From an uncultured delta proteobacterium (GTDB lineage Bacteria > Desulfobacterota > Desulfobaccia > Desulfobaccales > 0-14-0-80-60-11), in assembly GCA_963709285.1 (NCBI GenBank), contig CAVPVR010000002.1, positions 65,491-129,490 of the forward strand: 64,000 nt of DNA. Direction: 5' to 3'. The position numbers were made by a program, and so were the translations under genes. Positions 13,827 to 46,721 of the stretch are shown here, piece after piece; position 1 is the stretch's first letter, and each line of letters starts with the position of its first letter. The notes beneath the pieces are model-generated. The model saw nothing but the letters and a program-made list of their open reading frames with translations, was not told the DNA's origin and searched no databases.

Positions 13827-15062
13827 CTACTCATATCTGATGGCTTCCACCGGGTCCAGGCGAGAGGCCTGCCAGGAGGGATACAACGTGGCCAGAAAAC
13901 TTATGAGCATAGCCGCCCCCACAATCAGAGCCACGTCCAGGGTCTGTATTTTCACGGGCAAGGTGGAGATGAGATAAACATCCCGGGGAAGCTTGATAAA
14001 CTCATACTGTTTCAAAAGGGAGCACAGGGTCAAGCCCAGGACCAGCCCCAGGGTGGTGCCGAGAAAGCCGATGAGCAGCCCGTCCATGACAAAAATCTTC
14101 ATGATGCTCTGACGCGTGGCGCCCATGGATTTCAAGATGGCGATCTCCTTGGTTTTTTTCATTACCATCATAAAGAGGGTGGAGGCAATGCCGAAGGCCG
14201 CCACCAGGACGATGAGGGTGAGAATGACGAACATGGCGATCTTCTCCAGCTTCAGGGCGGAGAAGAGGCTGTAATTCATGCGTATCCAGTCCAGGAAATA
14301 AAAATCCTGTCCCAGTTTCGTGGTAATGTCTTGACCCATTTCCTGGGCGGCATAAATGTCCCGGATGGTCACTTCCAGACCCGTTACCCGATCCCCAAAC
14401 TGTAAAAGGTCCTGGATGGCGGGAAGGCTGACGTAAACCAGGGAAGTATCAAACTCGTACATGCCGGAATGGAAGATGGCAGCCACCCGAAAAAGCCGCA
14501 GACGGGGAAGCTGGCCCATGGGAGTGAGCGCTCCCCGGGGGATAAAGAGGTTGAAAAAGTCTCCCACCTCCAGGTTGAGACGGCGGGCCAGTTCGTTGCC
14601 GATGGCCACCGGGGGAGGCTCTCCGGGCTCATATGCGGCCAAGTCGGTGAAGTTCCCCTTTTGCACCTTTAAACTTTCCGGCCCTCCGGCTTTGAGGACG
14701 CTTAGATCCAGTCCTCTGAGCATCCCCCCGGAGATGGTTCCGGGGGTGGAAAACATCACCGGGGTATAGAGGTAGGGCTGCACCGTCTCCACCCCGGGTA
14801 CGGTCTTGATTTTGGCTGCCACCTGATCGTAGTGGCCGATGCGGCCCCCCTTGGACAGGATAATGATCTGGGGGTTGACGCTCAGGATTTTTTTCTTCAA
14901 ATCCTCATCGAACCCGGTCATCACGCCGATGACCACAATAAGGGCCATGACCCCCACCGCCACCCCGGCGATGGAGAACAGGGAAGAGAGGGAAATGAAG
15001 CCTTTTTGCCGCCGGACACCCCGAAGGAAGCGCAGGGCCACGAAGGTCTCAAAAAAACCCAT
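13827..15062 (-). CDS. lolC: Lipoprotein-releasing system permease (LolC/LolE, MacB-FtsX family)
   Basis: 411 aa with an N-terminal TM helix, a periplasmic domain, and a C-terminal FtsX-type 3-TM bundle. Confidence 0.85.
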   Translation of the reverse strand: MGFFETFVALRFLRGVRRQKGFISLSSLFSIAGVAVGVMALIVVIGVMTGFDEDLKKKILSVNPQIIILSKGGRIGHYDQVAAKIKTVPGVETVQPYLYTPVMFSTPGTISGGMLRGLDLSVLKAGGPESLKVQKGNFTDLAAYEPGEPPPVAIGNELARRLNLEVGDFFNLFIPRGALTPMGQLPRLRLFRVAAIFHSGMYEFDTSLVYVSLPAIQDLLQFGDRVTGLEVTIRDIYAAQEMGQDITTKLGQDFYFLDWIRMNYSLFSALKLEKIAMFVILTLIVLVAAFGIASTLFMMVMKKTKEIAILKSMGATRQSIMKIFVMDGLLIGFLGTTLGLVLGLTLCSLLKQYEFIKLPRDVYLISTLPVKIQTLDVALIVGAAMLISFLATLYPSWQASRLDPVEAIRYE

Positions 15063-15064
15063 GG

Positions 15065-16549
15065 CTACCTCTCCGGCCTGAGCAGGGGGAAAAGAATGAC
15101 ATCCCGGATGGAGGGAGAGTCGGTGAGGAGCATCACCAACCGGTCGATGCCAATACCCTCGCCGGCGGCGGGGGGCATGCCATGTTCCAGGGCCAGGAGG
15201 AAATCCTCGTCCACGGCGTCAGGCATCTCGTCGTCCCCGGCGGCATGGGCCGCCAGTTGCTGTTCGAAGCGCTGCCGCTGGTCGTCCGGGTCGTTGAGCT
15301 CACTGAAGGCATTGGCCATTTCCCGCCCGGCGATGAAAAGTTCGAAGCGGTCCACCACCTCGGGATTGTCATCGTTTTTCCGGGACAAGGGGGAGGTTTC
15401 GGTGGGATAACCCAGAACGAAGGTAGGCTGAATGAGCCTGGCCTCCACGTGCAGGTCAAAGAGCTTGGTTAAAGCCCGGCCGTAGCCCTCTCCGGAGCGG
15501 AGTTGCACCCCTTCACGGAGGGCCAGCTTCACCAGGGCCTGGCGGTCGGCCACCACTTCCCGGGGTATGCCGCCAATCTCCGTCAGGGACTCTCTGAGAT
15601 CCAGGCGCCGCCAGGGTTGGGTGAAGTCAATTTCCTGTTCCTGGTAAGAGAATTTCAAGGTTCCCAGAGTCTCCTGGGCCAGAAAACAGAAGAGCTCTTC
15701 CGTGAGGACCATCAAGTCCTCGTAGGTGGCGTAGGCCTGGTAAAACTCCAGCATGGTGAATTCCGGATTGTGGAGACTCGACAGGCCCTCGTTGCGGAAG
15801 TTACGGTTGATTTCATAGACCCGGTCGAAGCCTCCCACCACCAAACGCTTCAAATAAAGTTCCGGGGCGATGCGGAGATATAGCTGCATGTCCAGGGCGT
15901 GATGATGGGTGACAAAGGGCTTGGCCGTGGCCCCGCCGGGAATGGGCTGCATCATGGGAGTCTCCACCTCGAGGAACTCTCGTTCATCCAGGAACTGGCG
16001 GATGAGCCGGGTAACGGCTGCCCGGGTCTGGAAGACCTGCCAGACCTGGGGATTCATCAGGAGGTCGAGATAGCGCTGGCGGTAGCGGACCTCAACATCG
16101 GTAAGCCCGTGGTACTTTTCGGGCAGGGGCCGCAAAGATTTGGTGAGAATGGTAAAGCGGCTGACCGCCAGGGTGAGTTCCTCGGTCTTGGTGCGAAACA
16201 GGGTTCCCTCGAAGCCTACGAAGTCACCGATATCCAGCTTCTTAAACCAAGTATAGGCCTCGTTCCCCATCACTTCCCGCTGCACATAGGCCTGGAGGCG
16301 CCCGGTGCCGTCTTGGAAATGGCAAAAAATGGCCTTGCCAAACTTGCGGACCAGCATAAGGCGGCCGGCCAGGCGGAAGGTCAGGTTCAGCTTCTCGAGC
16401 TCCGGCCCCGTCACGGCGCCATGCTCTCCGATCACCTGGGCGATGGAGTGGCTGGGGACGAAGCGATTGAAGAAGGGATCGAGGCCCGCCCGCCGGAACT
16501 CAGTGATTTTTTCCCGGCGCTGGGCCAGGATGTGGTCAGCCAGGGACAT
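15065..16549 (-). CDS. lysS: Lysine--tRNA ligase (class II)
   Basis: 494 aa with an OB anticodon-binding domain and class II motifs (FRNEG..., [11 protein letters not shown]). Confidence 0.95.
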
Positions 16550-35235: not shown

Positions 35236-37599
35236 GTGGAACCTGAACTTCGCATCGGCTTATATATCTGTCACTGCGGCCTCAATATCGCCGGGGTCAT
35301 CAGTCCGGAGGCCCTGTCGGTTCAGGGGCAGGGGCTCCCTGAGGTGGCGGTCAGTCGCCATCATTTGTACACCTGCTCCGAAGCCGGCCAAGCCGAGATT
35401 CTGAAAGACATCAAGCACTTTAAGCTTGATCGGGTGGTTATTGCCGCCTGTTCACCCAAGCTTCATGAAGTCACCTTCCGCCGGCTGCTGTCGGAAGCGG
35501 GGCTGAATCCCTACCTGGTGGAAATGGTGAACATCCGGGAGCACTGCGCCTGGGTGCACGCCGGGGAGCCGGAGGCGGCCCAGGAAAAGGCGTTGGAGCT
35601 CATCCGCATGGGGCTAGCCAAGGCGTGTCTGGCGGTCCCCTTGCAAGACCGCCAGGTGCCCATGACCAGGCATGCCCTGGTTATTGGCGGAGGCCCAGCG
35701 GGACTGCGAGCCGCCCTCGATATTGCCCATGCCGGCTACCCCGTAACCCTGGTGGAACGGGAGCCCATCCTAGGGGGCATGGCCAACCGGCTGCATCGCA
35801 CCTTTCCCCGGGGGGAAAGCGCCCTGGCCCTGATCAATCCCCTCATGGCTGCGGTGGCCCTGCATCCCGGCATCCAGGTGCTCACCCAGAGCGAGGTCAC
35901 CGAGGTGAGCGGGCATTTGGGGGAGTTTGCCGTCACGGTGCGGGAGACCCTGCCCCTGGTGGGGGAGGCCTGCGACCGCTGTGGGCACTGTGCTGAGGTC
36001 TGTCCGGTGGTGGTTCCCGATACCGTGGCCGCAGGTCTTGGCACCCGGACTGCCATCTATCTGCCGGCCCCCCATGCTTTTCCCGGCCGCTATGTGGTGG
36101 ATCTGGAGCACTGCGACCGCTGCGGCGAGTGTATAGCTGCCTGTCCCCAGGAGGCCATCAGCCTGGAGGAAGGGGAACGAGAGCATCACCTCACCGTGGG
36201 GAGCATCGTGGTGGCCACGGGCTTCACTCTCTTTGATACGGCGGGGAGCCGCTATGAGAACTGGGCTGACCATCCGGGAGTTGTCACCACGGTGGCCCTG
36301 GAGCGCCTTCTGGCGGGGGCAGGACCCACCCAGGGAAAGGTAAGCCTTGCCGATATTCCAGAAGAGGTGCGGGATGTGGCTTTTCTGCTGTGCGTGGGCT
36401 CCCGGGAGGAGGAGGGCAACCGTTACTGCTCCCGGGTGTGCTGCCCCACGGCCTTGAAGCAGGCCCTGGAGCTGAAAAAACGCCTCCCGGAGGCCCGCAT
36501 TCGTATCTATTACCGGGACATCCGCACCAACAAAAAAGACTGGGAGGCCCTTTACACCGAGGCCCGGGAAGCGGGGGTGCTGTTTTTGCGGGGGCGGGTG
36601 GAGGAAGTAAAAGCCGCCCAAGATGGGGGCCTGCTCATTCGTGCCTTTAACGAGACCTTTCAGGTTCCCACCGAAGACCGGGTGGACCTGGCGGTCCTGG
36701 CCGTGGGCATGGTCCCCGGGAACGGCGCCGCTCTCCGGGAGGTGTTGAAGCTGCCGGTGGGACCGGACGGCTTTTTCATGGAGGCCCACCCCAAGCTCAA
36801 GCCCCTGGAGACGGTGCTGGACGGCATTTTTCTGGCCGGGGCCTGTCAGGGTCCCAAGGACCTGGCCGAATCCTTCACCCAAGGAAGCGGCGCGGCCGCC
36901 AAGGTTCTGGCCCTCTTTGCCCACGAGACCATCACCCTGGACGGCCTGGTGGCCCAGGTGGACCCGGAGGTCTGTGTGGGCTGCGGGGAATGCGCGGCAG
37001 CCTGTCCGTTTCAGGCCATGGAGATGGTGGGGGAGGAAGAAAAGCAGCAGGCCCAGGTAGTTACTGCAGCCTGCAAGGGCTGTGGGGTCTGCGCCGGCGC
37101 CTGTCCTACGGGGGCGGTCATCCCCGCGGGGTTTACGGACGAGATGATCCTGGCTCAGATCGACGAGGCCTTGGCGGAGGCTCCGGAACAGAAAATTTTG
37201 GCCTTTTGCTGCAACTGGTGCTCTTATGCCGGGGCGGACTTCGCCGGGGTGTCGCGGCTGGCCTATCCCCCCCAAGTGCGCATTATCCGAACCATGTGCT
37301 CTGGCAGGATTCACCCCAAGTTTATCCTCCATGCGTTTGAGCGGGGCGCCGGCCAGGTTTTGATCTCCGGTTGCCACCCTCCGGGGGAATGCCATTATAT
37401 TTCTGGAAATCTTAGGGCTCAGGAGCGGGTGGAAAAGCTCCGGCCCAAACTTGCCAAAAAAGGCATCGACCCTTCCCGCCTGCGGCTGGCGTGGGTTTCA
37501 GCCACGGAAGGGAGGGCATTTCAACGGGTCATTGAAGAAATGGCCGCGGCCCTGGAGCCTGAAGAGACGGTCAAACAAGCGAGCGGTCAGGGGAAATGA
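35236..37599 (+). CDS. hdrA: HdrA-like flavoprotein fused to a C-terminal MvhD-like domain
   Basis: LYICHCGLNIAG N-terminal cluster, VIGGGPAGLRAAL FAD motif, CVGSRE, ferredoxin motifs, and a C-terminal ILAFCCNWCSYAGAD...ISGCHPPGECHY (MvhD signature). GTG start. Confidence 0.85.
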   Translation: MEPELRIGLYICHCGLNIAGVISPEALSVQGQGLPEVAVSRHHLYTCSEAGQAEILKDIKHFKLDRVVIAACSPKLHEVTFRRLLSEAGLNPYLVEMVNIREHCAWVHAGEPEAAQEKALELIRMGLAKACLAVPLQDRQVPMTRHALVIGGGPAGLRAALDIAHAGYPVTLVEREPILGGMANRLHRTFPRGESALALINPLMAAVALHPGIQVLTQSEVTEVSGHLGEFAVTVRETLPLVGEACDRCGHCAEVCPVVVPDTVAAGLGTRTAIYLPAPHAFPGRYVVDLEHCDRCGECIAACPQEAISLEEGEREHHLTVGSIVVATGFTLFDTAGSRYENWADHPGVVTTVALERLLAGAGPTQGKVSLADIPEEVRDVAFLLCVGSREEEGNRYCSRVCCPTALKQALELKKRLPEARIRIYYRDIRTNKKDWEALYTEAREAGVLFLRGRVEEVKAAQDGGLLIRAFNETFQVPTEDRVDLAVLAVGMVPGNGAALREVLKLPVGPDGFFMEAHPKLKPLETVLDGIFLAGACQGPKDLAESFTQGSGAAAKVLALFAHETITLDGLVAQVDPEVCVGCGECAAACPFQAMEMVGEEEKQQAQVVTAACKGCGVCAGACPTGAVIPAGFTDEMILAQIDEALAEAPEQKILAFCCNWCSYAGADFAGVSRLAYPPQVRIIRTMCSGRIHPKFILHAFERGAGQVLISGCHPPGECHYISGNLRAQERVEKLRPKLAKKGIDPSRLRLAWVSATEGRAFQRVIEEMAAALEPEETVKQASGQGK

Positions 37600-39218
37600 T
37601 AACCAAGACCCAAGTTCTCTTGTGCGCCTGCCCGGACCTCAAGGTGGAGGTCCAGAACTTGGCCCAACGCCTCTCCCAGGCCGGGCTGAGGGTCGAAGTA
37701 TCCCCGCCTCTCTGCACCCCCGCGGGTTTGGAGGAATGGGGGCCACGCCTGACGGCCGAACCCCGGGAGTGGCTGGTGGCCGCGTGCGGACCGGCACAGC
37801 ATCACGGCCTTTTTCAACGTCTGGCCGGGGATGAACCTCTGGCCATGGTGGATCTCCTAGCCGCAGACGATCTGGAAAGCGCTGTGGCAGCCGTCCTCCT
37901 GGCCCAAAAGGAGGAAATTCGCCTGGTTTCCGCGGGCGCACCCCACAGCCGGGAGGTGCTGGTGGTGGGGGGCGGGGTGGGGGGCTGTCAGGCCGCCCTG
38001 GACCTGGCCAATGCCGGTTTCAAGGTACATCTGGTGGAATCCTCCCTCTCCATCGGTGGCACCATGGCCCAGTTGGACAAGACCTTTCCCACGCTGGACT
38101 GCTCCATCTGCATCCTGGGACCCAAGCTGGTGGAAGCCGCGGCCCACCCCTTGATTGAGCTCCTCACCTTTGCGGAAATCACCGGCATTTCCGGCCAGGC
38201 CGGGCGATTTACGGTGGATGTGACCCTGAAGCCCCGCTATGTGGACATGAGCCGGTGTGTGGGCTGCGGCAGTTGCGTCCAGGTCTGCCCGGTCATTGTT
38301 CCCAGTCGCTGGAACCTGGGGCTCAAGTCCCGCAAGTGCATCCGCATCATTTTTGCGCAGGCGGTGCCCCTTATGGCCACTATCGAAAAAGAATACTGCA
38401 TCGACTGCCAGATGTGCCTTGAGGCCTGTGAACACGGGGCCATTCACCCTTTGTCCCGCCCGGAGGAACGGCGCCTCGAGGTGGGGGCGGTGGTTCTGGC
38501 TACCGGGGCCCGGCCCTTTGACCCGGCCATTCAGAGTGAATACAGTTATGGCCGTCTCCCCGGGGTCCTCACCAACCTGGAGTTCGAGCGCCTGGTGTGC
38601 GCCACCGGTCCTACTCAAGGACATCTCCTGACCCCCGCCGGGCAACCGGTGAAGCGTCTGGCCTTCATCCAGTGTGTGGGCTCCCGGGACCGGCGCTTCC
38701 TGCCCTACTGCTCGGGCTACTGCTGCACTGCGGCCATCAAGCAGGCCATGCTGACCCTGGAGCATGAACCCGACGCCGAGGTCACCATCTTTTTCAACGA
38801 CATCCGCACGTCGGGGAAGGGCTTCGAGGAACTCTATTTGCGGGCCCAAGCCGCGGGAGTGCGCTTTACTAAAGGTCTGCCGGGGCGTATCGAGGCGGGG
38901 GAGGCTGGCAGCCTCATAATCATTTATGAAGATCAGCAAGGCGGCCAGCGGGGCCGTCTGCCCGTGGACCTGGCGGTCCTGTCCGTAGGCCTGACCGCAC
39001 CCCGGGAGGGACTCCCCTTCACAGAGATCGGGCCGGTGCGGGACAACCTGGGATTTTATGACAGCCGGCACCCGATCCTTCATCCCCTGGAGTCCACGGT
39101 GCCGGGAGTCTTTCTGGCCGGCACCGCCCAGGGGCCCCGGGATATTTCTGAAACGGTGTGCACCGGCAGCGGGGTTGCGGCCCGGATCATCAACCTGCTC
39201 AATTCTCTGCCCCAGTAG
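37596..39218 (+). CDS. hdrA: HdrA-like flavoprotein (third paralog, with a distinct N-terminal extension)
   Basis: VVGGGVGGCQAAL, DKTFPTLDCSICIL, CVGCGSCVQVCP and IQCVGSRD motifs. Its start overlaps the upstream stop (ATGA). Confidence 0.8.
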   Translation: MITKTQVLLCACPDLKVEVQNLAQRLSQAGLRVEVSPPLCTPAGLEEWGPRLTAEPREWLVAACGPAQHHGLFQRLAGDEPLAMVDLLAADDLESAVAAVLLAQKEEIRLVSAGAPHSREVLVVGGGVGGCQAALDLANAGFKVHLVESSLSIGGTMAQLDKTFPTLDCSICILGPKLVEAAAHPLIELLTFAEITGISGQAGRFTVDVTLKPRYVDMSRCVGCGSCVQVCPVIVPSRWNLGLKSRKCIRIIFAQAVPLMATIEKEYCIDCQMCLEACEHGAIHPLSRPEERRLEVGAVVLATGARPFDPAIQSEYSYGRLPGVLTNLEFERLVCATGPTQGHLLTPAGQPVKRLAFIQCVGSRDRRFLPYCSGYCCTAAIKQAMLTLEHEPDAEVTIFFNDIRTSGKGFEELYLRAQAAGVRFTKGLPGRIEAGEAGSLIIIYEDQQGGQRGRLPVDLAVLSVGLTAPREGLPFTEIGPVRDNLGFYDSRHPILHPLESTVPGVFLAGTAQGPRDISETVCTGSGVAARIINLLNSLPQ

Positions 39219-39297: not shown

Positions 39298-39672
39298 ATG
39301 TCGGATATTCAGATAAAACCGGAAGAACAACCGAAAAAATTACAAAAACCCTTGCCCCTGGTCCTGGAGATCATTCCCGGGCAGGCCGGGGAGGGGCTCG
39401 TGGTGGTAATGGAGCCAGGGAGCTACGAGGGCAGCACCCTGAGGGAGCTCTGTGATCAGGCTTTGAGCCGCCCCGACTTCAGCATCGAGGAGCGCCAGAT
39501 TTTAGAGGACATCCAGCGGCAGCTTCAGGGTGGCAAGCTCCTTTGCCAGGGCCGGGACCTCGACGGACCCGCCCAGGTCTTCGGAACCGTTGAGGAGACG
39601 GAAGCCGGGGAGGCTTATCTTTATGTGCCTGTCCGGGCCATCAAGCCTCAGGAGGGGGGCCTCTTCCCTTAA
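39298..39672 (+). CDS. Ubiquitin-like (beta-grasp) protein candidate with C-terminal GG followed by LFP
   Basis: 124 aa from the ATG at 39298, with a GGAAAGG RBS 8 nt upstream. It shows a beta/alpha alternation compatible with a beta-grasp fold, ends ...YLYVPVRAIKPQEGG-LFP, and sits in an operon with E2-like, JAB and E1 genes. Confidence 0.5.
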   Translation: MSDIQIKPEEQPKKLQKPLPLVLEIIPGQAGEGLVVVMEPGSYEGSTLRELCDQALSRPDFSIEERQILEDIQRQLQGGKLLCQGRDLDGPAQVFGTVEETEAGEAYLYVPVRAIKPQEGGLFP

Positions 39673-39675
39673 GGA

Positions 39676-40878
39676 ATGGGAACGGGAGCGGGGATGTGGA
39701 GGTGTTTTGAAGCCGACCTGGAAATCCTGGTGCACCGGGGCCACCTGTACCTTCCCCTGGTTTTAGATCCAGAGATCAACCAGGAGATTCAGGCCCCGAT
39801 TTCCCCAAGTTATTCGTGGGATCAATCGCCCGGCGGGCTCAGCCGTTCACCGGTGCCTACGGTCCTGGCTGTCCTGGATAGATGGTTCGTCCAGGCGGTG
39901 AGCGCTTCCTCCCTGGTTGACAACTACGCCCAGCTTTTTCCCCAAGACCACGAAGACCGCCGGCGGACTCTCCGTGAACAATACTCTCTGACCGCGGACC
40001 TCTTTGGGGTGGCCCTGGACCCCCACCTGGTCGCCATCGTTTTTCACATTTTACCCCATTTTCTCAGGCGGGATGGATTTCAGAGACGGCGGCGCTTACA
40101 GGAGGGGGAGGTCCTGGATTTCATCCGGGAGCGAGTCCAGGTGCCCCACTACTTCGACCAACAAGCGCGGAGTTTCCTGGATGTCAATCCTCTGAAGGAG
40201 GCCCTCCGGCGCCTGGAAACCGTTCATCTTGAGCCCAAACCACCTCCAGAGGGATTGGTGCCGGCAGCCGATCTGGGGGCCTGGTGGGAGGAGGTCCTAA
40301 CAGCCCAACTTCTGGCCGAGGAGCGCAACCGCCTCTTCCAGGAGATCGAGGAACGGGAGCACTGGGCCACGGCTCAGGAAAGTCGTCTGGCGGTTCTGCT
40401 CTATTTAGCTCAAAAAGGGTCCCTGGAACTGGACGGCTTCGGGTTCTCCCGGATGAGGCGGGGCCAGGATTACCGGGTTTACAAGCGCACCGGGCCCTAT
40501 GCCCTCCAGGACTTTTATGGCCATTTGTACCTCTTCCCGGATTGCCGGGTGGCGGTCACCACTTTGGGGCGCCTGCGGCCCGTGGTGGTGGATCACTATA
40601 AGCACCCGTTCCTGAGAAGGTACGCTTCTGGCCAGGAAATCTGCATAGGTCCCGAAAGCAGTAATCTTTCTTTTTCGGCAAAAAACGCCATCCAGGTCCT
40701 GGAGGAAGGGATCAACGCGCTCTTGTACAGCTACGACGGCCGGCACCGCGCCGGCTACCACAGACTGTTTGTGCTGCCGGGGATGATGCGACTGGTGGAC
40801 TTCGAAGACATTCGCATCCCGAAGGACCACCCCCTCATCGTCTCAGGGAAAGTGGAAGTGAAGAACCGGGCCACCTGA
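39676..40878 (+). CDS. E2/UBC-like protein candidate with a large N-terminal extension
   Basis: The C-terminal region YLFPDCRVAVTTLGRLRPVVVDHYKHPFLRRYASGQEICIGPES...AIQVLEEGINALLY mirrors the UBC layout (FP..., HPN-like HPF, G-x-x-I-C-[LI], following helix). The candidate catalytic Cys323 codon is at 40642-40644. Confidence 0.45.
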   Translation: MGTGAGMWRCFEADLEILVHRGHLYLPLVLDPEINQEIQAPISPSYSWDQSPGGLSRSPVPTVLAVLDRWFVQAVSASSLVDNYAQLFPQDHEDRRRTLREQYSLTADLFGVALDPHLVAIVFHILPHFLRRDGFQRRRRLQEGEVLDFIRERVQVPHYFDQQARSFLDVNPLKEALRRLETVHLEPKPPPEGLVPAADLGAWWEEVLTAQLLAEERNRLFQEIEEREHWATAQESRLAVLLYLAQKGSLELDGFGFSRMRRGQDYRVYKRTGPYALQDFYGHLYLFPDCRVAVTTLGRLRPVVVDHYKHPFLRRYASGQEICIGPESSNLSFSAKNAIQVLEEGINALLYSYDGRHRAGYHRLFVLPGMMRLVDFEDIRIPKDHPLIVSGKVEVKNRAT

Positions 40879-40879
40879 C

Positions 40880-41287
40880 ATGGACCTTAAGGACTCTTTT
40901 CGCCGGGACCGGCTTCGGGGGAAGGAGAAGGAGCCCTGGGCCCCCTCCCTGTTCTCTCAGGTCGGAGGGCTGGTGCGGCGTCATCGACTGGGAGAGGCAT
41001 TTTGTCAGCTTCTCGGGCAGATGACTACGGCAAGTGCGGAAACCTTAGCGCAGACCCACCGATCTGCTCCCAAGGCCCCTTTCGAGCCACCCCTGTTTTT
41101 TTTGGCCACCGCAGAGGATTATCAGGTGATTCAGAAAATTCTCTCGGGCCTAAACAACCCCTACCTGGCTTGGGCCTGCAGTCCGGAGGAAATTCTTCTG
41201 TCGCCAACCCTGTGGAGCCGGCGTCCCGGCCTTGACCCAGAGGTGCTGGCCACCCACCACTTTGCGGCGTTGCTTTTACATGATTAA
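40880..41287 (+). CDS. Hypothetical protein of the Ubl operon
   Basis: 135-aa ORF starting 1 nt after the upstream stop. No family recognised. Confidence 0.5.
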
Positions 41288-41289
41288 AT

Positions 41290-41340
41290 TTGAGAGGAGG
41301 GCTGGGGGAGCGCGGCTCCCCCACTCTCCCCCCAAAAAAC
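41290..41340. repeat. G/C-tract hairpin repeat copy
   Basis: GAGAGGAGGGCTGGGGGAGCGCGGCTCCCCCACTCTCCCCCC is palindromic and lies between the 135-aa gene and the clpX-like gene. Confidence 0.5.
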
Positions 41341-41364: not shown

Positions 41365-42468
41365 ATGCCGAATGGCATAACTGATGAGAAGCGGCGGCGC
41401 CTCGAAGAAAAGATGGAGCAGTTTCGGGAACGTCAGATAGACGAGGCGGTGCAGCACATCCTTGAATTCGACAAGACTCCTACGACCCTGAAGGCCGAAG
41501 TGGACCGGTTCGTCATCGGCCAGGAGAAGGGGAAAAAGATTATCGCCACGGCCATCGCGTTCCATTATAAGCGGCTGGGTGCCGCGTTGAAGCGCACCTT
41601 GGGAGAACACAACGGCAGCATCGAGAGCGCCCTCAAGAGCACCCGTACCCCCAAGGCCAACATCCTCATGGTGGGTCCCACCGGGTGCGGCAAGACCTAC
41701 ACCAGCGAGACCGCCTCGGAGCTGGTGGGGGTGCCCTTCGTGGTAGAGGACATGACCAAGTTCAGCGAGGTGGGCTACGTGGGCATGAATGTCAGCGACA
41801 TCCTGGTGGACCTCCTCATCTCCGGAGACGGCAACCCGAATGTGGCCCAGATGGGTATCGTCTACCTGGACGAAGTTGACAAGATTGCCGCCGAGACCTC
41901 CACCGTCCGGGATGTTTCGGGGAAGGGAGTCCAGAAGGGTCTTCTCAAGCTGGTGGAGGGGGTGGACAACACCCTGGAGATCGGCAAGGAGCGTTTCTCT
42001 CTTTCCACCAAGCACGTGCTGTTTATTGCCGGGGGGGCTTACGACAGCCTGGAAGGCATCGTCAGGAAGCGCCTGGCCCGCCTGAATGTGACGGGCGACT
42101 GGCGGGACCACCTGGCCACCGAGGACCTGGTTTCCTTCGGTATGGAGCGCCAGCTTGTGGGCCGCTTCCCGGTCCGGGTGGTGTATGATCGCCTCACCAC
42201 CCAGGAACTCCAGGACATCCTGACCAAGAGCGCCGACAGTCCCCTCCGGGCTTACGTCCAGGACCTGGAAAGCTGGGGCATCGACCTGAAATACACCGAG
42301 GAGGCCCTGGGGGAGATCGCCCGCCGGGCCAAGCGGGAGGGCACCGGGGCCCGGGGACTGGTGGGCATCCTCCACCGGGTGCTGCTCGAGGACATGTTCC
42401 GCCTACCCGGCAACTACACGGGAGAGCTCATGATGGACGGAGCCTACATCCGGGAGAAACTGGGATGA
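41365..42468 (+). CDS. ClpX-like AAA+ unfoldase lacking the Zn-ribbon, RKH and IGF (ClpP-docking) elements
   Basis: VIGQEKGKK, Walker A GPTGCGKT, pore loop GYVG, Walker [30 protein letters not shown], and sensor region GARGL. There is no N-terminal C4 domain and no GIGF motif. A CAAGGAG RBS precedes the ATG at 41365. Confidence 0.85.
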
Positions 42469-43432: not shown

Positions 43433-44431
43433 ATGATTGAGTCTTGCGTATGGCGCCGCCTTTGTCGTCCCGAGGTTGGGATTCCGAACTCGATAAGTGA
43501 TCTGATTGCCCGGGAAGAATGGCTGAAAGGGGATTTTTTAACTTCCGTACGTATGGGGCCAACACTATTTATAGCGAGTGATTATGGTGGAGCGCACAAG
43601 GGTGCTGTATATGAGACCCTCTCGTTTCTCATGGCCGACTTGACATATGTTTGGTTATTTGACGAATTGCGTACAAAGCTACGCAATGAAGCGGTTCTAA
43701 AAAGTCGCCGTATGGCATACAAATCTTTAGGCGACCGTCGGAGACAAGAAGCACTTGTGCCGTTTCTTCGATCGGGTAACACGATCCCGGGACTTCTAAT
43801 GAATATTGTATTAGATAAAAACGCCTCCCAATTACTTTCAGAATCCTATCAACCTAAATTTGCCTTTGGCGAACTTAGCCATTGGTGTAAAGGGTCCTTT
43901 GAAAAACTCACGCGCGTTGGACAACTGGGAGCGATGCTTGTTGAGGGAATGTGCGCTCCAGGTCAGAATGTATTATGGATTTCTGACGAAGATGAGATAG
44001 CGCCAAACAGAGAGAAGTTGTTTGAGGCAACTAACGTTTTAGGCCATTACCTGAATCATTTCTGTTCTAATCAGATGGGGCACATGAGATTTGGAACTAC
44101 AAACGTGGACAATGGCAACCTCCGAATTGAAGATCTTGTCGCGCTCGTTGATCTTGCAGCTGGATGCCTCTCGGAGATCTTTACGCAAACGATGAAACTG
44201 TTTGGAAGCCCTGCAAGCAAAATCCTTATACCTGGGACGCACTCGTCATCTAAGAAAGCAAGAATTATTGCAAATTGGATGGCCCAGGGTAATCATCCTC
44301 TGAAGAAGCTAATCGTGTTGGTTGAAGCTCAAAATAATTCTTATATCACGAAAGTCGTAAACTTTTATCCAGAAGGCACAACAAACATTTTCGACTGGGT
44401 AGCCGATTTCGAGGAGTTGCTCAGAAATTGA
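43433..44431 (+). CDS. Hypothetical protein on a low-GC insertion
   Basis: 332-aa ORF, visibly AT-richer than its neighbours and preceded by a 170-bp AT-rich spacer. No family recognised. Confidence 0.6.
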   Translation: MIESCVWRRLCRPEVGIPNSISDLIAREEWLKGDFLTSVRMGPTLFIASDYGGAHKGAVYETLSFLMADLTYVWLFDELRTKLRNEAVLKSRRMAYKSLGDRRRQEALVPFLRSGNTIPGLLMNIVLDKNASQLLSESYQPKFAFGELSHWCKGSFEKLTRVGQLGAMLVEGMCAPGQNVLWISDEDEIAPNREKLFEATNVLGHYLNHFCSNQMGHMRFGTTNVDNGNLRIEDLVALVDLAAGCLSEIFTQTMKLFGSPASKILIPGTHSSSKKARIIANWMAQGNHPLKKLIVLVEAQNNSYITKVVNFYPEGTTNIFDWVADFEELLRN

Positions 44432-44497
44432 CTACTTCTAACTCTTTGAATTGTTTGACGTTTTAATATGTTAGCATCTTAGCGTTAGAATGTGAGT

Positions 44498-44728
44498 ATG
44501 AAGAATTCACCGAAACGAGCCACCATCTACTTCGAATCCGACCTGCACCGGGCCTTACGGGTGAAGGCGGCGGAGGTGGGCCAGTCGATGTCCGAACTGG
44601 TCAATCAGGCGGTGAAGCTTTCCTTGGCCGAGGACGCTAAGGATATAGCGGCCTTCGAGGAGCGCCAGCACGAACCCAGCCTGCCCTTTGAGGACGTCCT
44701 GAAAGACCTCAAGATAGGGAAGGGCTGA
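44498..44728 (+). CDS. Ribbon-helix-helix (CopG/antitoxin-like) protein, orphan
   Basis: KRATIYFESDLHRALRVKAAEVGQSMSELVNQAV is a typical RHH beta-strand plus two helices. No adjacent toxin ORF is seen. Confidence 0.7.
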   Translation: MKNSPKRATIYFESDLHRALRVKAAEVGQSMSELVNQAVKLSLAEDAKDIAAFEERQHEPSLPFEDVLKDLKIGKG

Positions 44729-45218: not shown

Positions 45219-46721
45219 GTGACCTTGCCTGAAAACACCTATTTATCCCGGGATGAAGCAACTCCGGACGAGCGCCTGGACCGGCAGGTGCGCATTCCGG
45301 GGTGGAACCAGGAGGCGTTGGCCCAGGCCCGGGTGGGGGTGGTGGGAGACGACCCCTGGCTCACTGGCCTGGTGGTGACTTCGGCTGCGGCCCTGGGAAT
45401 CAACCGGCTGACGGTGGTGGCCCCGGACCTGGACCCCCGCTTGCTCTCGGCGACCCGGGGGCTTAATCCGGAGTTCAACCTTGCCTGGTTCCCAGGCTTT
45501 TTCAGCCATTCCCTCCTGGAGGACCTGCTCCGGGAATGCACCGTCCTGATTGACCTGGGCCACCACGGCCTGGCCACCAAGCTCCTCCTCAATCTGGCCC
45601 AAAGGAAAGGTCTCCCCCTGGTGCGGGCGTCTGACTTTGAGGAGGATGGGGTGGCGGGCCTCAGGCTCTTCACCTATCAGCCAGGCCGGGAATGGCGGGA
45701 ACTCCTGGAAGTGCTTCCTCAAGCCCAACTTCCTTCCCGGTGTCAGGGCGACCCGGTGCTGGCTCTGGTCACGGTGGGGCTGGTTCTCGAGGAAACCAAA
45801 AAGCTCCTCCTGGGGGAGGCGGTAACACCGGAGGTGATCTCATACTCTCGGGCCAGCTTAAAGACATTTAATTTGAGGGAGAGGGCTAGGGGCCGTGAGC
45901 CCCTACCCCCTCCCTCAAACTCCCTCCCCCAACCCCTTAAGGGGGAGAGAAATGCTGTAAAGTCGGGGCAAGCTGCCCCGACTTTACAAGCACATTGCGG
46001 GATGGGAGGGGGGCTTGATGGGAAGAAAGGGACCGGTAGCATGGGCTTCCAGCCCGTGGCACCCTGGCCTTACCCTCATGAGCTCATTTTTCTGGATTCC
46101 CCCATCGCGGTGGTGGGCGCCGGGGCCCTGGGGAACTTTGTGGCGTTGGGGTTGGCCGCTCTGGGCTTCACCCGCCTCACCTTTATCGATCCGGACCCGG
46201 TGGAGGTCACCAATCTGAACCGTCAGGTTCTCTTCTGGGACGCCGTGGGACAGCCCAAGGCCGAGGCGTTAGCAGAAAAAATCAAGGAGTGGTTCGGGGT
46301 GGCGGTCAGGGCTGACACGACATACATCACCCGGGAGACTGACTTGCGCGAGTTTGCCGTGGTGTTCGACTGCACGGACAATTTTGCCAGCCGCATTATC
46401 CTGAGCGAAAAGTGCCGGGAATATGGCCAAATCCTCATCAGCGGCGGCACCGGGGTGGAGGCCGGACAGGTAGTGGTCTTCGACCCCGCGCAAGGCGGCC
46501 CCACCCCCGCAGAGCTTCTGGGGCTTTATGACATCGTGGGACAGCGTGACATCGACGTCAAAGAGCGGGAACGGGCCTCCTGCGTCTATGCCCCTGAAGC
46601 CGCCATAATCATGACCAACCAGATCGTCGGGGGCCTTATGGTGGACACCCTGAGAAGACTGCTTACGGGAGAGCCGGCACCCAACCTCTTCTACGACGCC
46701 CGGAGTGAAAGGATGATTTAG
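45219..46721 (+). CDS. E1-like (ThiF/MoeB/UBA family) activating enzyme with a degenerate N-terminal and an intact C-terminal adenylation domain
   Basis: The C-terminal half, IAVVGAGALGNFVALGLAALGFTRLTFIDPDPVEVTNLNRQVLF...FDCTDNFASR, is a classic ThiF fold. The N-terminal half has a Rossmann-like layout but a degenerate loop (VGVVGDDPWLTG). GTG start. Confidence 0.8.
   Translation: MTLPENTYLSRDEATPDERLDRQVRIPGWNQEALAQARVGVVGDDPWLTGLVVTSAAALGINRLTVVAPDLDPRLLSATRGLNPEFNLAWFPGFFSHSLLEDLLRECTVLIDLGHHGLATKLLLNLAQRKGLPLVRASDFEEDGVAGLRLFTYQPGREWRELLEVLPQAQLPSRCQGDPVLALVTVGLVLEETKKLLLGEAVTPEVISYSRASLKTFNLRERARGREPLPPPSNSLPQPLKGERNAVKSGQAAPTLQAHCGMGGGLDGKKGTGSMGFQPVAPWPYPHELIFLDSPIAVVGAGALGNFVALGLAALGFTRLTFIDPDPVEVTNLNRQVLFWDAVGQPKAEALAEKIKEWFGVAVRADTTYITRETDLREFAVVFDCTDNFASRIILSEKCREYGQILISGGTGVEAGQVVVFDPAQGGPTPAELLGLYDIVGQRDIDVKERERASCVYAPEAAIIMTNQIVGGLMVDTLRRLLTGEPAPNLFYDARSERMI
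45873..46062. repeat. G/C-tract hairpin repeat modules inserted in frame inside the E1 gene
   Basis: TTGAGGGAGAGGGCTAGGGGCCGTGAGCCCCTACCCCCTCCCTCAAACTCCCTCCCCCAACCCCTTAA matches the intergenic element at 57548-57616. It also contains the hairpin AAAGTCGGGGCAagcTGCCCCGACTTT and a GGCTTCCAGCCCGTGGCAC motif. Confidence 0.7.

Follow-up and report, generated by a model that had tools for sequence, protein, structure and literature searches.

Does a bacterial protein that matches no family model carry an E2-type (UBC-fold) enzyme in its C-terminal third, and does this enzyme serve a ubiquitin-like tag encoded next to it? The question arises from one gene in the window, by which we mean the whole stretch of 64,000 nucleotides that was analysed, from an uncultured delta proteobacterium. 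An initial annotation, made from the sequence alone, had read an E2/UBC-like catalytic core centred on Cys323 in the C-terminus of a 400-residue product. We examined this reading by comparing related loci, searching sequence and structure libraries and modelling the protein.

The target gene and its conserved operon

Translation of the forward strand from 39676 to 40878 contained the annotated ORF and every sequence element that had been quoted from it, and the codon of the proposed cysteine had been placed correctly (Table 1). GGGAG lies upstream of the ATG at 39694 and most homologues are 394 residues long; this ATG is likely to be the true start of the gene, with a predicted product of 394 residues. 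Because this start gives 394 residues, Cys323 of the longer form is Cys317 in the family numbering. The span originally given for the E2-like core, 40450-40878, was too short, since 40450 corresponds to residue 259 and lies inside the domain, which begins near 40378. The N-terminal region was modelled as mainly helical with two β-hairpins. It had been described as belonging to no recognisable family and, in agreement, Pfam, NCBIfam and PADLOC contained no match to it. Detectable similarity to this region was found in just 4 of 23 distant relatives, and it is therefore the variable part of the protein. A substrate- or ATPase-binding role for it, as the initial annotation proposed, is speculative.

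Table 1. Positions of the operon genes and of the main features of the target protein within the window
Feature	Position	Strand	Remarks
Small protein gene (124 aa), candidate ubiquitin-like modifier	39298..39672	+	ends ...VRAIKPQEGG then LFP
GG codons of the candidate tag protein	39655-39660	+	followed by 3-residue tail LFP
Target gene (ORF)	39676/39694-40878	+	394/400 residues; unannotated protein
N-terminal region, residues 1-228 (394-aa numbering)	39694..40377	+	alternative start ATG 39676
Predicted C-terminal UBC/E2-like domain, residues 229-394	40378..40878	+	AlphaFold models, Foldseek, recurrence in relatives
First helix of the domain, RLAVLLYLAQKG	40384-40419	+	
His-Pro-Phe, H304-P305-F306 (H310-F312 in 400-aa numbering)	40603..40611	+	codons cac ccg ttc
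Cys317 (Cys323 in 400-aa numbering), candidate catalytic thioester cysteine	40642..40644	+	codon tgc
135-aa protein (p135) gene	40880..41287	+	basic N-terminus, conserved NPYL..SP[DE]EILL block
ClpX-like AAA+ ATPase, 367 aa from Met26	41365..42468	+	ORF opens at 41290
JAB/JAMM metallopeptidase, 265 aa	42465..43262	+	JAMM-type motif
Window-specific insertion splitting the operon: 332-aa ORF and RHH antitoxin-like ORF	43433..44728	+	lower GC
E1-like ThiF-family adenylating enzyme, 500 aa	45219..46721	+	Pfam ThiF 8.6e-39, two stretches

The target gene belongs to a conserved six-gene operon that encodes a candidate tag protein, the E2-like target, a 135-residue protein (p135), a ClpX-like ATPase, a JAB peptidase and an E1. 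By tblastn, 85 related loci contained the GG-protein in 74 cases, p135 in 80, the ATPase in 75, the JAB protein in 74 and the E1, which adjoins the rest of the module, in 64, all in the same order. The C-terminus of the tag protein was strictly conserved in the 74 loci that encode it: an invariant [VI]RA[IL][KR]PQEGG was followed by 0-19 non-conserved residues, and in 9 species the protein ends exactly at GG. The tag protein itself had no Pfam match and no sequence match in the PDB, and a PDB profile search with it was uninformative.

Directly 3′ of the target gene, p135 was considered as the operon's real E2 and rejected, since its alignment held no catalytic-looking invariant residues and no conserved Cys or His; a PDB profile search with it was likewise uninformative. 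In two loci (L083 and L085) p135 and the ATPase are missing together, and p135 may serve the ATPase as an adaptor. The ATPase scored 267 bits against the NCBIfam ClpX model, under the 359-bit cut-off, and also matched Pfam AAA_2. Aligned with E. coli ClpX, it has kept the Walker A and B motifs, the GYVG pore loop, the sensor and the Arg finger; the N-domain with its zinc finger, the RKH loop and the IGF loop through which ClpX docks on ClpP have been deleted. Of these, the zinc-binding N-domain and the IGF loop characterise ClpX proper, and the ATPase would be placed outside it.

In the JAB protein, E52, H108-S-H110, S119 and D122 were invariant in 29 sequences, fitting the E ... H-x-H-x(7-8)-S-x-x-D metal-binding pattern. 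The window protein matched Pfam Prok-JAB weakly, under the cut-off, and in a PDB sequence search the family profile matched the Rpn11-like 6fju best (E 0.52); JAB homologues adjoining distant relatives of the target exceeded the Prok-JAB cut-off. Among 57 E1 homologues, the first half of the protein is a degenerate Rossmann fold, with GD where GxGxxG is expected, and the second half carries G.GALG, NLNRQ, D..DN and an invariant Cys455; the C-terminal half is predicted to be the one active in adenylation. Between the JAB and E1 genes the operon is split by an insertion that appears specific to the window: its 332-residue protein had no match in the 85 related loci, and its RHH matches were weak, under the Pfam cut-offs.

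The target family was present in at least 113 species genomes and is concentrated in Thermodesulfobacteriota, as are most of the 85 loci. Many of the host species are sulfate-reducing or syntrophic bacteria, and one cultured host, Desulfoferrobacter suflitae DRH4 (L080), carries the module. The module also occurs in metagenome-assembled genomes labelled Binatia, Methylomirabilota/Methylomirabilales, Acidobacteriota, Nitrospiraceae and Acidithiobacillales. Reduced operons retain the GG-protein, the E2-like protein, the JAB peptidase and the E1. Proteins of 330-540 residues carry the C-terminal domain behind a variety of N-terminal regions, and distant relatives that share this domain alone adjoin Pfam-confirmed Prok-JAB and/or ThiF proteins. 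At three of these loci (L087-L089) the upstream small protein ends in ...SH[DE]E[GC]G plus a tail. A scan of viral contigs for the distant group found no relatives. We also considered whether the operon is part of a defence island and rejected this, since PADLOC matched just the adenylation domain of the E1 (through its E1-E2 models) and the flanking genes are housekeeping, not defence, in L001-L005, the five related loci for which genes were called.

An invariant cysteine in a predicted UBC-like domain

Sequence models gave no sign of an E2. Scans with Pfam, NCBIfam and PADLOC returned nothing for the window protein, for 60 family members or for 10 distant relatives, and this includes the Pfam E2 models (UQ_con and the Prok-E2 families) and the PADLOC E2 models for the window protein. 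Searches of PDB sequences, run with the single protein and two profiles, yielded chance matches only, to shikimate dehydrogenase and AKT kinase. An HMM of canonical E2s run over 267 family proteins scored them no better than shuffled sequences. The profile-profile comparison that the initial annotation had suggested also failed: hhalign of a diverse C-domain alignment against six canonical E2s gave a non-significant probability of 0.3%. The sole stretch that it aligned, in this non-significant result, paired HPF..C with HPN..C, with Cys317 opposite the catalytic Cys85. The family appears to escape current sequence models of E2s.

AlphaFold models were built on family alignments of 60 sequences for the full-length protein and 32 for the domain alone. 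The domain-only model had a pLDDT of 79.6 and a pTM of 0.73, and the domain pLDDT was about 80 in both models. When the domain model was compared with the PDB by Foldseek, as had also been suggested, the best 50 matches were UBC-fold E2/UEV proteins in 50 of 50 cases, among them Cdc34, Ube2g1/g2, Ubc9, Rad6, UbcH5/7 and Ubc13/Mms2. The matches were weak, with a best E of 0.017, probabilities of 0.77-0.84, TM-scores of 0.28-0.39 and an rmsd of 6-9 Å; none reached E ≤ 1e-3 and the TM-scores lie below the usual same-fold threshold. For the full-length model, E2s made up about 30 of the 50 best matches, and in the viral library giant-virus E2 was the sole recurring annotated family.

The UBC core consists of a helix, a meander, the HP loop, the catalytic Cys, a short helix and a long helix. 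The modelled domain has the same order: helix RLAVLLYLAQKG, β-meander, YKHPF, GQEIC, a short helix, the long helix AKNAIQVLEEGINALLY and a GYH-containing tail. The element order claimed in the initial annotation is the one seen in the model, whereas its four-strand meander is not, as the modelled sheet has five to six strands. About 11 extra residues separate the FPDCRVAVTT strand from KHPF in the models, and the C-terminal helices of canonical E2s are absent. In the model, Cys317 occupies a loop that corresponds to the site of the E2 catalytic Cys, and the non-significant hhalign alignment places it there too.

In an alignment of 60 family members, H304, P305, Q314 and C317 were invariant. 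Across 52 diverse sequences, a set that takes in very distant relatives and has a mean column identity of 27%, the only invariant columns were the Y, H and P of Y-x-H-P and Cys317. Because of this invariance in both alignments, the resemblance to the E2 motif is more than chance. The cysteine was conserved in every homologue examined, as the original reading would predict. The second cysteine, in FPDC, and the GYH histidine lost conservation in distant relatives; the FPDC cysteine (Cys284/290) was rejected as the catalytic residue, since several distant relatives have Ala or Phe there.

His-Pro-Phe appears to be the counterpart of the E2 HPN motif, and the protein has the arrangement expected of an E2, a conserved Cys in a loop a few residues past an HPN-like motif. 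The distance from His310 to Cys323 (400-residue numbering) is 13 residues, compared with 10 (H75 to C85) in the canonical E2s; it had rightly been described as 3 residues longer, and it ranges from 7 to 14 across the superfamily. Phe takes the place of the HPN Asn, the residue that in canonical E2s stabilises the transition state; this holds for the window protein and for at least 90% of the 52 diverse sequences, the remainder having Ser, Ala or Leu. This Asn is not universal among divergent E2-like families.

A candidate E2 for the operon's putative tag

Gene context is the strongest evidence for the E2-like reading. The E1 and the candidate tag with a C-terminal glycine that an E2 would need are encoded beside the target (64 and 74 of the 85 loci, respectively), and no other gene of the module has a conserved cysteine able to serve as an E2. 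We conclude that residues 229-394 probably form a highly divergent UBC-fold (E2-type) domain, in which Cys317 most likely accepts the upstream GG-ended protein as a thioester from the operon's E1. The E2/UBC-like core proposed by the initial annotation is thereby supported by the invariant cysteine, by weak UBC-fold matches and by a Ubl/E1/JAB operon with no other E2 candidate.

Three other explanations were weighed against this one. The domain might have a UBC/UEV-like or similar shape and serve as a non-catalytic scaffold or adaptor for the tag, the E1 or the ATPase; Cys317 would then be structural, and the E1 would tag targets directly, as in the archaeal SAMP/UbaA system. The missing HPN Asn, the weak fold match and an N-terminal region as large and variable as an adaptor's would be are consistent with this, and there is a precedent in Haloferax, where a ThiF-type E1 conjugates the SAMPs without an E2. 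However, a structural role is hard to square with the invariance of this cysteine where all but Y-x-H-P has drifted, and with its location in a loop where E2s have their catalytic Cys. Inactive E2 relatives of the UEV type characteristically lack this Cys, and we consider a scaffold unlikely. Another possibility keeps the cysteine catalytic in a different chemistry: the domain could be a hydrolase or transferase that depends on its cysteine, such as a peptidase using Cys317 and His304 to process the tag or take it off. The tag's tail does need cleaving, and an invariant His and an invariant Cys stand 13 residues apart. Yet the operon already encodes a JAB protein whose intact metal-binding motif suits cleavage, and peptidase folds were absent from the best 50 PDB matches of the domain model. 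The order of the two residues also argues for an E2: papain-like, OTU and UCH enzymes have Cys then His, whereas in E2s the His of the HP motif precedes the Cys by a few residues, as it does here. A hydrolase of this kind is quite improbable.

The resemblance to E2s could also be coincidental, the domain being an unrelated new fold and its AlphaFold model misleading. All sequence-based tests were negative, the TM-scores fall under the usual same-fold threshold and the models rest on alignments of just 60 and 32 sequences. Chance nevertheless fails to explain why a single fold class fills 50 of 50 domain-model matches and emerges from two separately run models, or why the protein occurs in a Ubl/E1/JAB operon otherwise without an E2; we regard coincidence as very improbable.

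The analysis shows how residues and operon are conserved, that the predicted fold resembles the UBC fold and which domains the neighbouring genes encode; with the target as the operon's E2-type enzyme, we infer the biochemistry of the whole system as follows. The JAB peptidase would trim the tag's variable tail to expose ...PQEGG, and the two-domain ThiF E1 would adenylate the tag C-terminus and carry the tag on its invariant Cys455. Cys317 would then receive the tag, and the E2-like protein would attach it to lysines of target proteins, with the variable N-terminal region, possibly together with p135, substituting for a separate E3. Tagged proteins may be engaged by a hexamer of the ClpX-like ATPase, which has the pore loop and is without the ClpP-docking loop, and be unfolded or remodelled, while the JAB peptidase would recycle the tag during unfolding. 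Tentatively, the operon may constitute a housekeeping, non-antiphage pathway in which cysteine-based E1-E2 tagging is read by a ClpP-independent ClpX-type unfoldase and an Rpn11-like JAB, a bacterial counterpart of the tag, unfold and deubiquitinate logic of the proteasome regulatory particle or Cdc48. If the biochemistry holds, the operon adds an E2 family invisible to sequence models and a case of tag-directed protein unfolding by ubiquitin-type chemistry in bacteria, and it offers a tractable system for studying the route by which ubiquitin tagging and AAA+ unfoldases came to be linked.

Comparison with known conjugation systems

The closest structural matches of the domain, Cdc34, Ube2g1 and Ube2g2, are eukaryotic E2s with active-site insertions. 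Like the domain, they follow the helix-meander-HPx-Cys-helix order and have their Cys in a G-x-I-C context. The domain differs in its His-to-Cys spacing (13 rather than 10), in having Phe for Asn and in the roughly 11 extra residues before the HP motif; its GYH-containing tail replaces the two C-terminal helices, and it is fused to a 228-residue N-terminal region.

Among whole systems, the Pup-Mpa/proteasome pathway of Actinobacteria is similar by functional analogy only, in that an AAA+ unfoldase reads a small protein tag. Pup itself is a disordered protein whose ligation needs no E1 or E2, being carried out by an enzyme that resembles glutamine synthetase, and the components of the pathway have no homology to those described here. 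The archaeal ubiquitin operon of the Caldiarchaeum type encodes ubiquitin, an E1, an E2, a small RING protein and an Rpn11-like protein (see PMC3082918, PMC5654768). A GG-ended tag, an E1, an E2 and a JAB peptidase are common to both operons; in contrast, the operon in the window has no RING protein and encodes an AAA+ unfoldase. The archaeal E2 and ubiquitin are close to their eukaryotic counterparts and detectable by sequence, whereas the putative E2 and tag described here escape such detection. The Rpn11-like protein 6fju, which topped the PDB sequence search with the JAB family profile, comes from Caldiarchaeum.

In bacteria, the sources consulted describe ubiquitin-like conjugation in CBASS Cap2/Cap3, Bil and Bub. 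These systems are sparse, their function, where known or suspected, is antiphage defence, and none is described there with an unfoldase. In the literature searched, we found no Ubl/E1/E2/JAB operon described as including a ClpX-like ATPase. Type II CBASS also combines E1, E2 and JAB activities, but its Cap2 is an E2-E1 fusion that conjugates the CD-NTase, whereas the window operon has separate genes and a small GG protein as cargo; no CD-NTase match was found among the window operon proteins scanned. Bub (formerly 6E) comprises a Ubl, an E2, an E1 and the DUF6527 serine protease BubE, DUF6527 being always encoded, and its intermediates are oxyesters, formed on the Ser that is the catalytic residue of the E2 and on a Tyr in the crossover loop of the E1. 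It resembles our operon as a diverged bacterial Ubl-conjugation operon whose E2 is hard to recognise from sequence. Here, in contrast, the E2-like domain and the E1 each conserve a Cys, and Pfam found no DUF6527 among the window operon proteins scanned; with none of the Ser-E2, Tyr-E1 and DUF6527 features of Bub, the operon would fall outside that group.

Bil (bacterial ISG15-like) types I and II consist of the Ubl BilA, the E2 BilB, the JAB BilC and the E1 BilD (summarised in 10.1101/2024.11.21.623953). As in Bil, the tag, the E2-type protein, the JAB and the E1 are encoded by separate genes, and the invariant Cys residues of the E1 and the E2-like domain suggest a cysteine-based cascade. The operon differs from Bil in its E2-like protein, which is 394 residues long, has an N-terminal region that is unrelated and is matched by none of the E2 models of Pfam or PADLOC, in the added ClpX-like ATPase and 135-residue protein, and in its flanking genes (housekeeping rather than defence in L001-L005) and concentration in Thermodesulfobacteriota. 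Together, the evidence supports the operon as a variant of the bacterial ubiquitin-like conjugation systems with new features, its tag/E1/E2-like/JAB core being joined to a ClpX-derived AAA+ motor predicted to be unable to dock on ClpP.

Conservation of the E2-like protein and its C-terminal domain

The gene for the E2-like protein has two in-frame ATG codons, the first lying 4 nt past the stop codon of the preceding gene. Translation more likely starts at the second, since GGGAG precedes it and the resulting 394 residues are the length of most homologs. For the same reasons, although the open reading frame of the initial annotation stands and its translation contains all of the stretches quoted there, the length of 400 aa probably does not, and its residue numbers are probably 6 too high. 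The codon of the proposed catalytic cysteine (Cys323 there, Cys317 in the 394-aa form used here) was confirmed, and the His-to-Cys spacing is indeed 3 residues longer than canonical, i.e. 13 residues compared with 10 in the canonical E2s examined. The domain span had been started too late, downstream of its first helix.

Positions of features in the window (the last row is in the coordinates of related locus L001)
Feature	Position	Remark
Two HdrA-like flavoprotein/ferredoxin genes	35236-39218	before the operon
E2-like protein, longest reading	39676-40878	+ strand
First in-frame ATG	39676	
Second in-frame ATG	39694	
Helix RLAVLLYLAQKG	40384-40419	
Domain start in the initial annotation	40450	residue 259
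His-Pro-Phe codons	40603-40611	
Cys317 codon	40642-40644	tgc
332-aa and 78-aa ORFs	43433-44728	between JAB and E1
E1	45219-46721	
89-aa ORF (L001)	14851-15120	after E1

A search of 5.8 billion proteins returned 149 homologs, all unnamed and none with a Pfam domain, with Desulfobaccales, Binatia and Methylomirabilales MAGs as the named sources. Residues invariant in an alignment of 60 homologs included C284 (in FPDC), Y302, H304, P305, Q314, C317 and G354/H356. When 1.84 billion cluster representatives were searched exhaustively with a profile, 209 proteins were found, many of them 430-540 aa long and aligned over their C-terminal 170-200 residues only. Therefore, the C-terminal domain (residues 229-394) is a module joined to differing N-terminal regions; similarity in the N-terminal region was detectable in only 4 of 23 distant relatives. 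Across 52 sequences of the module, in which column identity averaged 27%, invariance was confined to Cys317 and to the Y, H and P of Y-x-H-P, and neither the FPDC cysteine nor the GYH histidine was kept. This sole invariance at such low identity argues that the Y-x-H-P/Cys pattern is a real feature under strong selection and not a chance motif. The cysteine singled out in the initial annotation thus held in both alignments.

Comparison with known E2 enzymes

Pfam, NCBIfam and PADLOC gave no E2 or other family match for the window protein, and scans with curated models gave none for 60 family members or for the distant relatives. PDB sequence searches returned chance matches only, and a canonical-E2 HMM scored the family no higher than shuffled copies. 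The profile-profile search proposed initially was unsuccessful with the alignments assembled: hhalign of a diverse C-domain alignment against six canonical E2s gave a probability of 0.3%, and the sole aligned stretch paired YkHPFL..Q.ICig with iyHPNv..G.iCLd.

The full-length AlphaFold model (pLDDT 79.9) has a mostly helical N-terminal region, followed from residue 229 by a helix, antiparallel strands, a long HPF-bearing loop, the cysteine and a long helix (329-345). In Foldseek searches of the PDB with this model, E2 enzymes made up ∼30 of the top 50 matches, none with E <= 1e-3. With a separate model of the C-domain alone (m2b5c6fc5de69; pLDDT 79.6, pTM 0.73), all 50 of the top PDB matches were UBC-fold proteins, including Cdc34, Ube2g1/g2, Ubc9, Rad6, UbcH5/7, Ube2S and Ubc13/Mms2 (best E 0.017, probability 0.77-0.84, TM 0.28-0.39, rmsd 6-9 Å). 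In the viral structure library BFVD, giant-virus E2 was the only recurring annotated family (ranks 24-50). Ranking above these were uncharacterised 373-435-aa proteins of crAss-like and podovirus-type phages, the top matches in that library (E 0.03-0.14, probability up to 0.84). Judged from the model, a UBC core of helix, meander, HP loop, Cys, short helix and crossover helix appears to be present, whereas the pair of C-terminal helices seen in canonical E2s is replaced and extra strands are added. The structural check suggested initially therefore gave an E2-only PDB list for the C-domain but low scores, and the fold evidence is consistent and exclusive, yet weak.

Gene context and partner proteins

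Gene context is the strongest evidence on the E2 question. Gene calls around two homologs gave the same neighbours (a ∼124-aa protein, the E2-like protein, a ∼140-aa protein, an AAA ATPase and a ∼265-aa protein), with a ThiF protein next in one of them. Scanning one genome per species, we detected the family in 113 species, mostly Thermodesulfobacteriota (Desulfobaccales, Syntrophobacterales, Desulfobacterales, Desulfarculales), and also in MAGs labelled Binatia, Methylomirabilota/Methylomirabilales, Acidobacteriota, Nitrospiraceae and Acidithiobacillales; a cultured carrier is Desulfoferrobacter suflitae DRH4. In tblastn searches of 85 loci with the window proteins, the E2-like protein was present in all 85, the 135-aa protein in 80, the ClpX-like ATPase in 75, the small GG-ended protein and the JAB protein in 74 each and the E1 in 64, part of the absences falling at contig ends. 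Gene order was constant, except that the E1 is placed either upstream or downstream.

Scanning metagenomes with aligned distant relatives of the C-domain added 15 loci. In seven of these (L087-L093), a ∼500-aa homolog precedes a JAB protein of 550-890 aa; two of these JAB proteins scored 35-38 bits with Pfam Prok-JAB (cut-off 25 bits). A ThiF E1 comes next in L087, L088, L091 and L093, and the contig ends earlier in the others. Upstream of the homolog, L087-L089 encode a 166-190-aa protein ending in ...SH[DE]E[GC]G plus a ∼10-residue tail. These seven look like a second, undescribed operon type. In L095, L096, L099 and L100, a 333-418-aa homolog lies directly upstream of a ThiF E1. The neighbourhoods of these relatives confirm, at the level of gene content, the predicted link of the C-domain with JAB, E1 and tag genes. 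None of the distant loci has a ClpX-like gene, and two reduced operons lack both this gene and that for the 135-aa protein: L083 (E1, GG-protein, E2-like protein and JAB) and L085 (E2-like protein and JAB). Therefore, the constant core is tag, E2-like protein, JAB and E1, and the 135-aa protein and ClpX-like ATPase are an added pair that tends to come and go together. A further reduced operon, L060, combines the E2-like protein with the 135-aa protein and the E1.

At its C-terminus, the small protein has an invariant [VI]RA[IL][KR]PQEGG and then 0-19 unconserved residues; in 9 species it stops exactly at GG. This is the signature expected of a tag processed to a C-terminal diglycine. The 265-aa protein has an invariant JAMM-type motif (E52, H108-x-H110, S119, D122); the best PDB sequence match of its family profile (A5) was an Rpn11-like protein (E 0.52). 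In the E1, the N-terminal Rossmann half is degenerate and the C-terminal half is active by motif (G.GALG, NLNRQ, D..DN). Its invariant Cys455 lies downstream of the adenylation motifs, presumably about where the crossover loop is expected. Between its Rossmann halves (residues ∼215-290), the window E1 also has a Pro/Gly-rich insert of ∼75 poorly conserved residues, which is missing from 57 E1 homologs of typically 414-436 aa. Since the 135-aa protein has no conserved Cys or His, the E2-like protein is the module's only candidate E2. Aligned with E. coli ClpX, the ClpX-like ATPase keeps Walker A/B, the GYVG pore-1 loop, sensor residues and Arg finger. Absent are the zinc-binding domain at the N-terminus, the RKH loop and the IGF loop, which docks ClpX on ClpP. 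From these features, the ATPase appears to be a translocating unfoldase that makes no delivery to ClpP; its NCBIfam ClpX score (267) is under the 359-bit cut-off.

In the window, the JAB-E1 interval holds two ORFs, one of 332 aa that matches no family and an RHH antitoxin-like one of 78 aa, with GC lowered to 0.53-0.55. As none of the 85 related loci gave a match to the 332-aa protein, the interval looks like a window-specific insertion splitting the operon. In 12 related loci (L003-L010, L033, L034, L056, L070), including divergent ones (57-66% identity), the gene immediately before that for the GG-protein is a homolog of the second HdrA-like gene; in a 13th, L001, just a short fragment on the opposite strand is present. 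Either plain synteny or a functional link could account for this adjacency. The 89-aa ORF, probably a coiled coil, follows the E1 in L001 and L002; it matches no family and did not appear among the conserved module members.

Proposed function and relation to known systems

We consider it likely that the protein acts as an E2. The C-domain could instead be a non-catalytic UEV-like scaffold or a cysteine enzyme of another kind, or its resemblance to E2s could be coincidental. All three alternatives are weakened by the invariance of Cys317, by the intact JAB peptidase that the module already has and by the exclusive E2 match lists of the fold searches.

With the protein as an E2, we infer the following steps from sequence features, the part directly observed. 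JAB would trim the tag to ...PQEGG, and the E1 would adenylate it, carry it on Cys455 and pass it to Cys317. The E2-like protein would then move the tag onto target lysines, its own N-terminal region, with or without the 135-aa partner, replacing an E3. Finally, the ClpX-like hexamer would bind the tagged proteins and unfold or remodel them while JAB takes the tag off. This full tag-then-unfold scheme is tentative, and we lean slightly against its holding in every step.

Bacterial systems described in the literature searched are CBASS Cap2/Cap3, types I and II of both Bil and Bub, and related MBL/Pycsar variants, and the operons listed by Iyer et al. 2006 include none with a ClpX-type ATPase. 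The same literature contained no description of a tag/E2-like/p135/ClpX-like/JAB/E1 module, an absence that is no proof of novelty. The module is like Bil in its separate putative tag, E2-like protein, JAB and E1 and its predicted cysteine chemistry. In contrast, Bub uses Ser/Tyr oxyesters and a DUF6527 protease, and Cap2 is an E2-E1 fusion conjugating a CD-NTase. Compared with CBASS Cap2, Bil and Bub alike, only this module has a predicted E2 family that models miss and a built-in putative unfoldase, and it has housekeeping-type neighbours (in related loci with gene calls).
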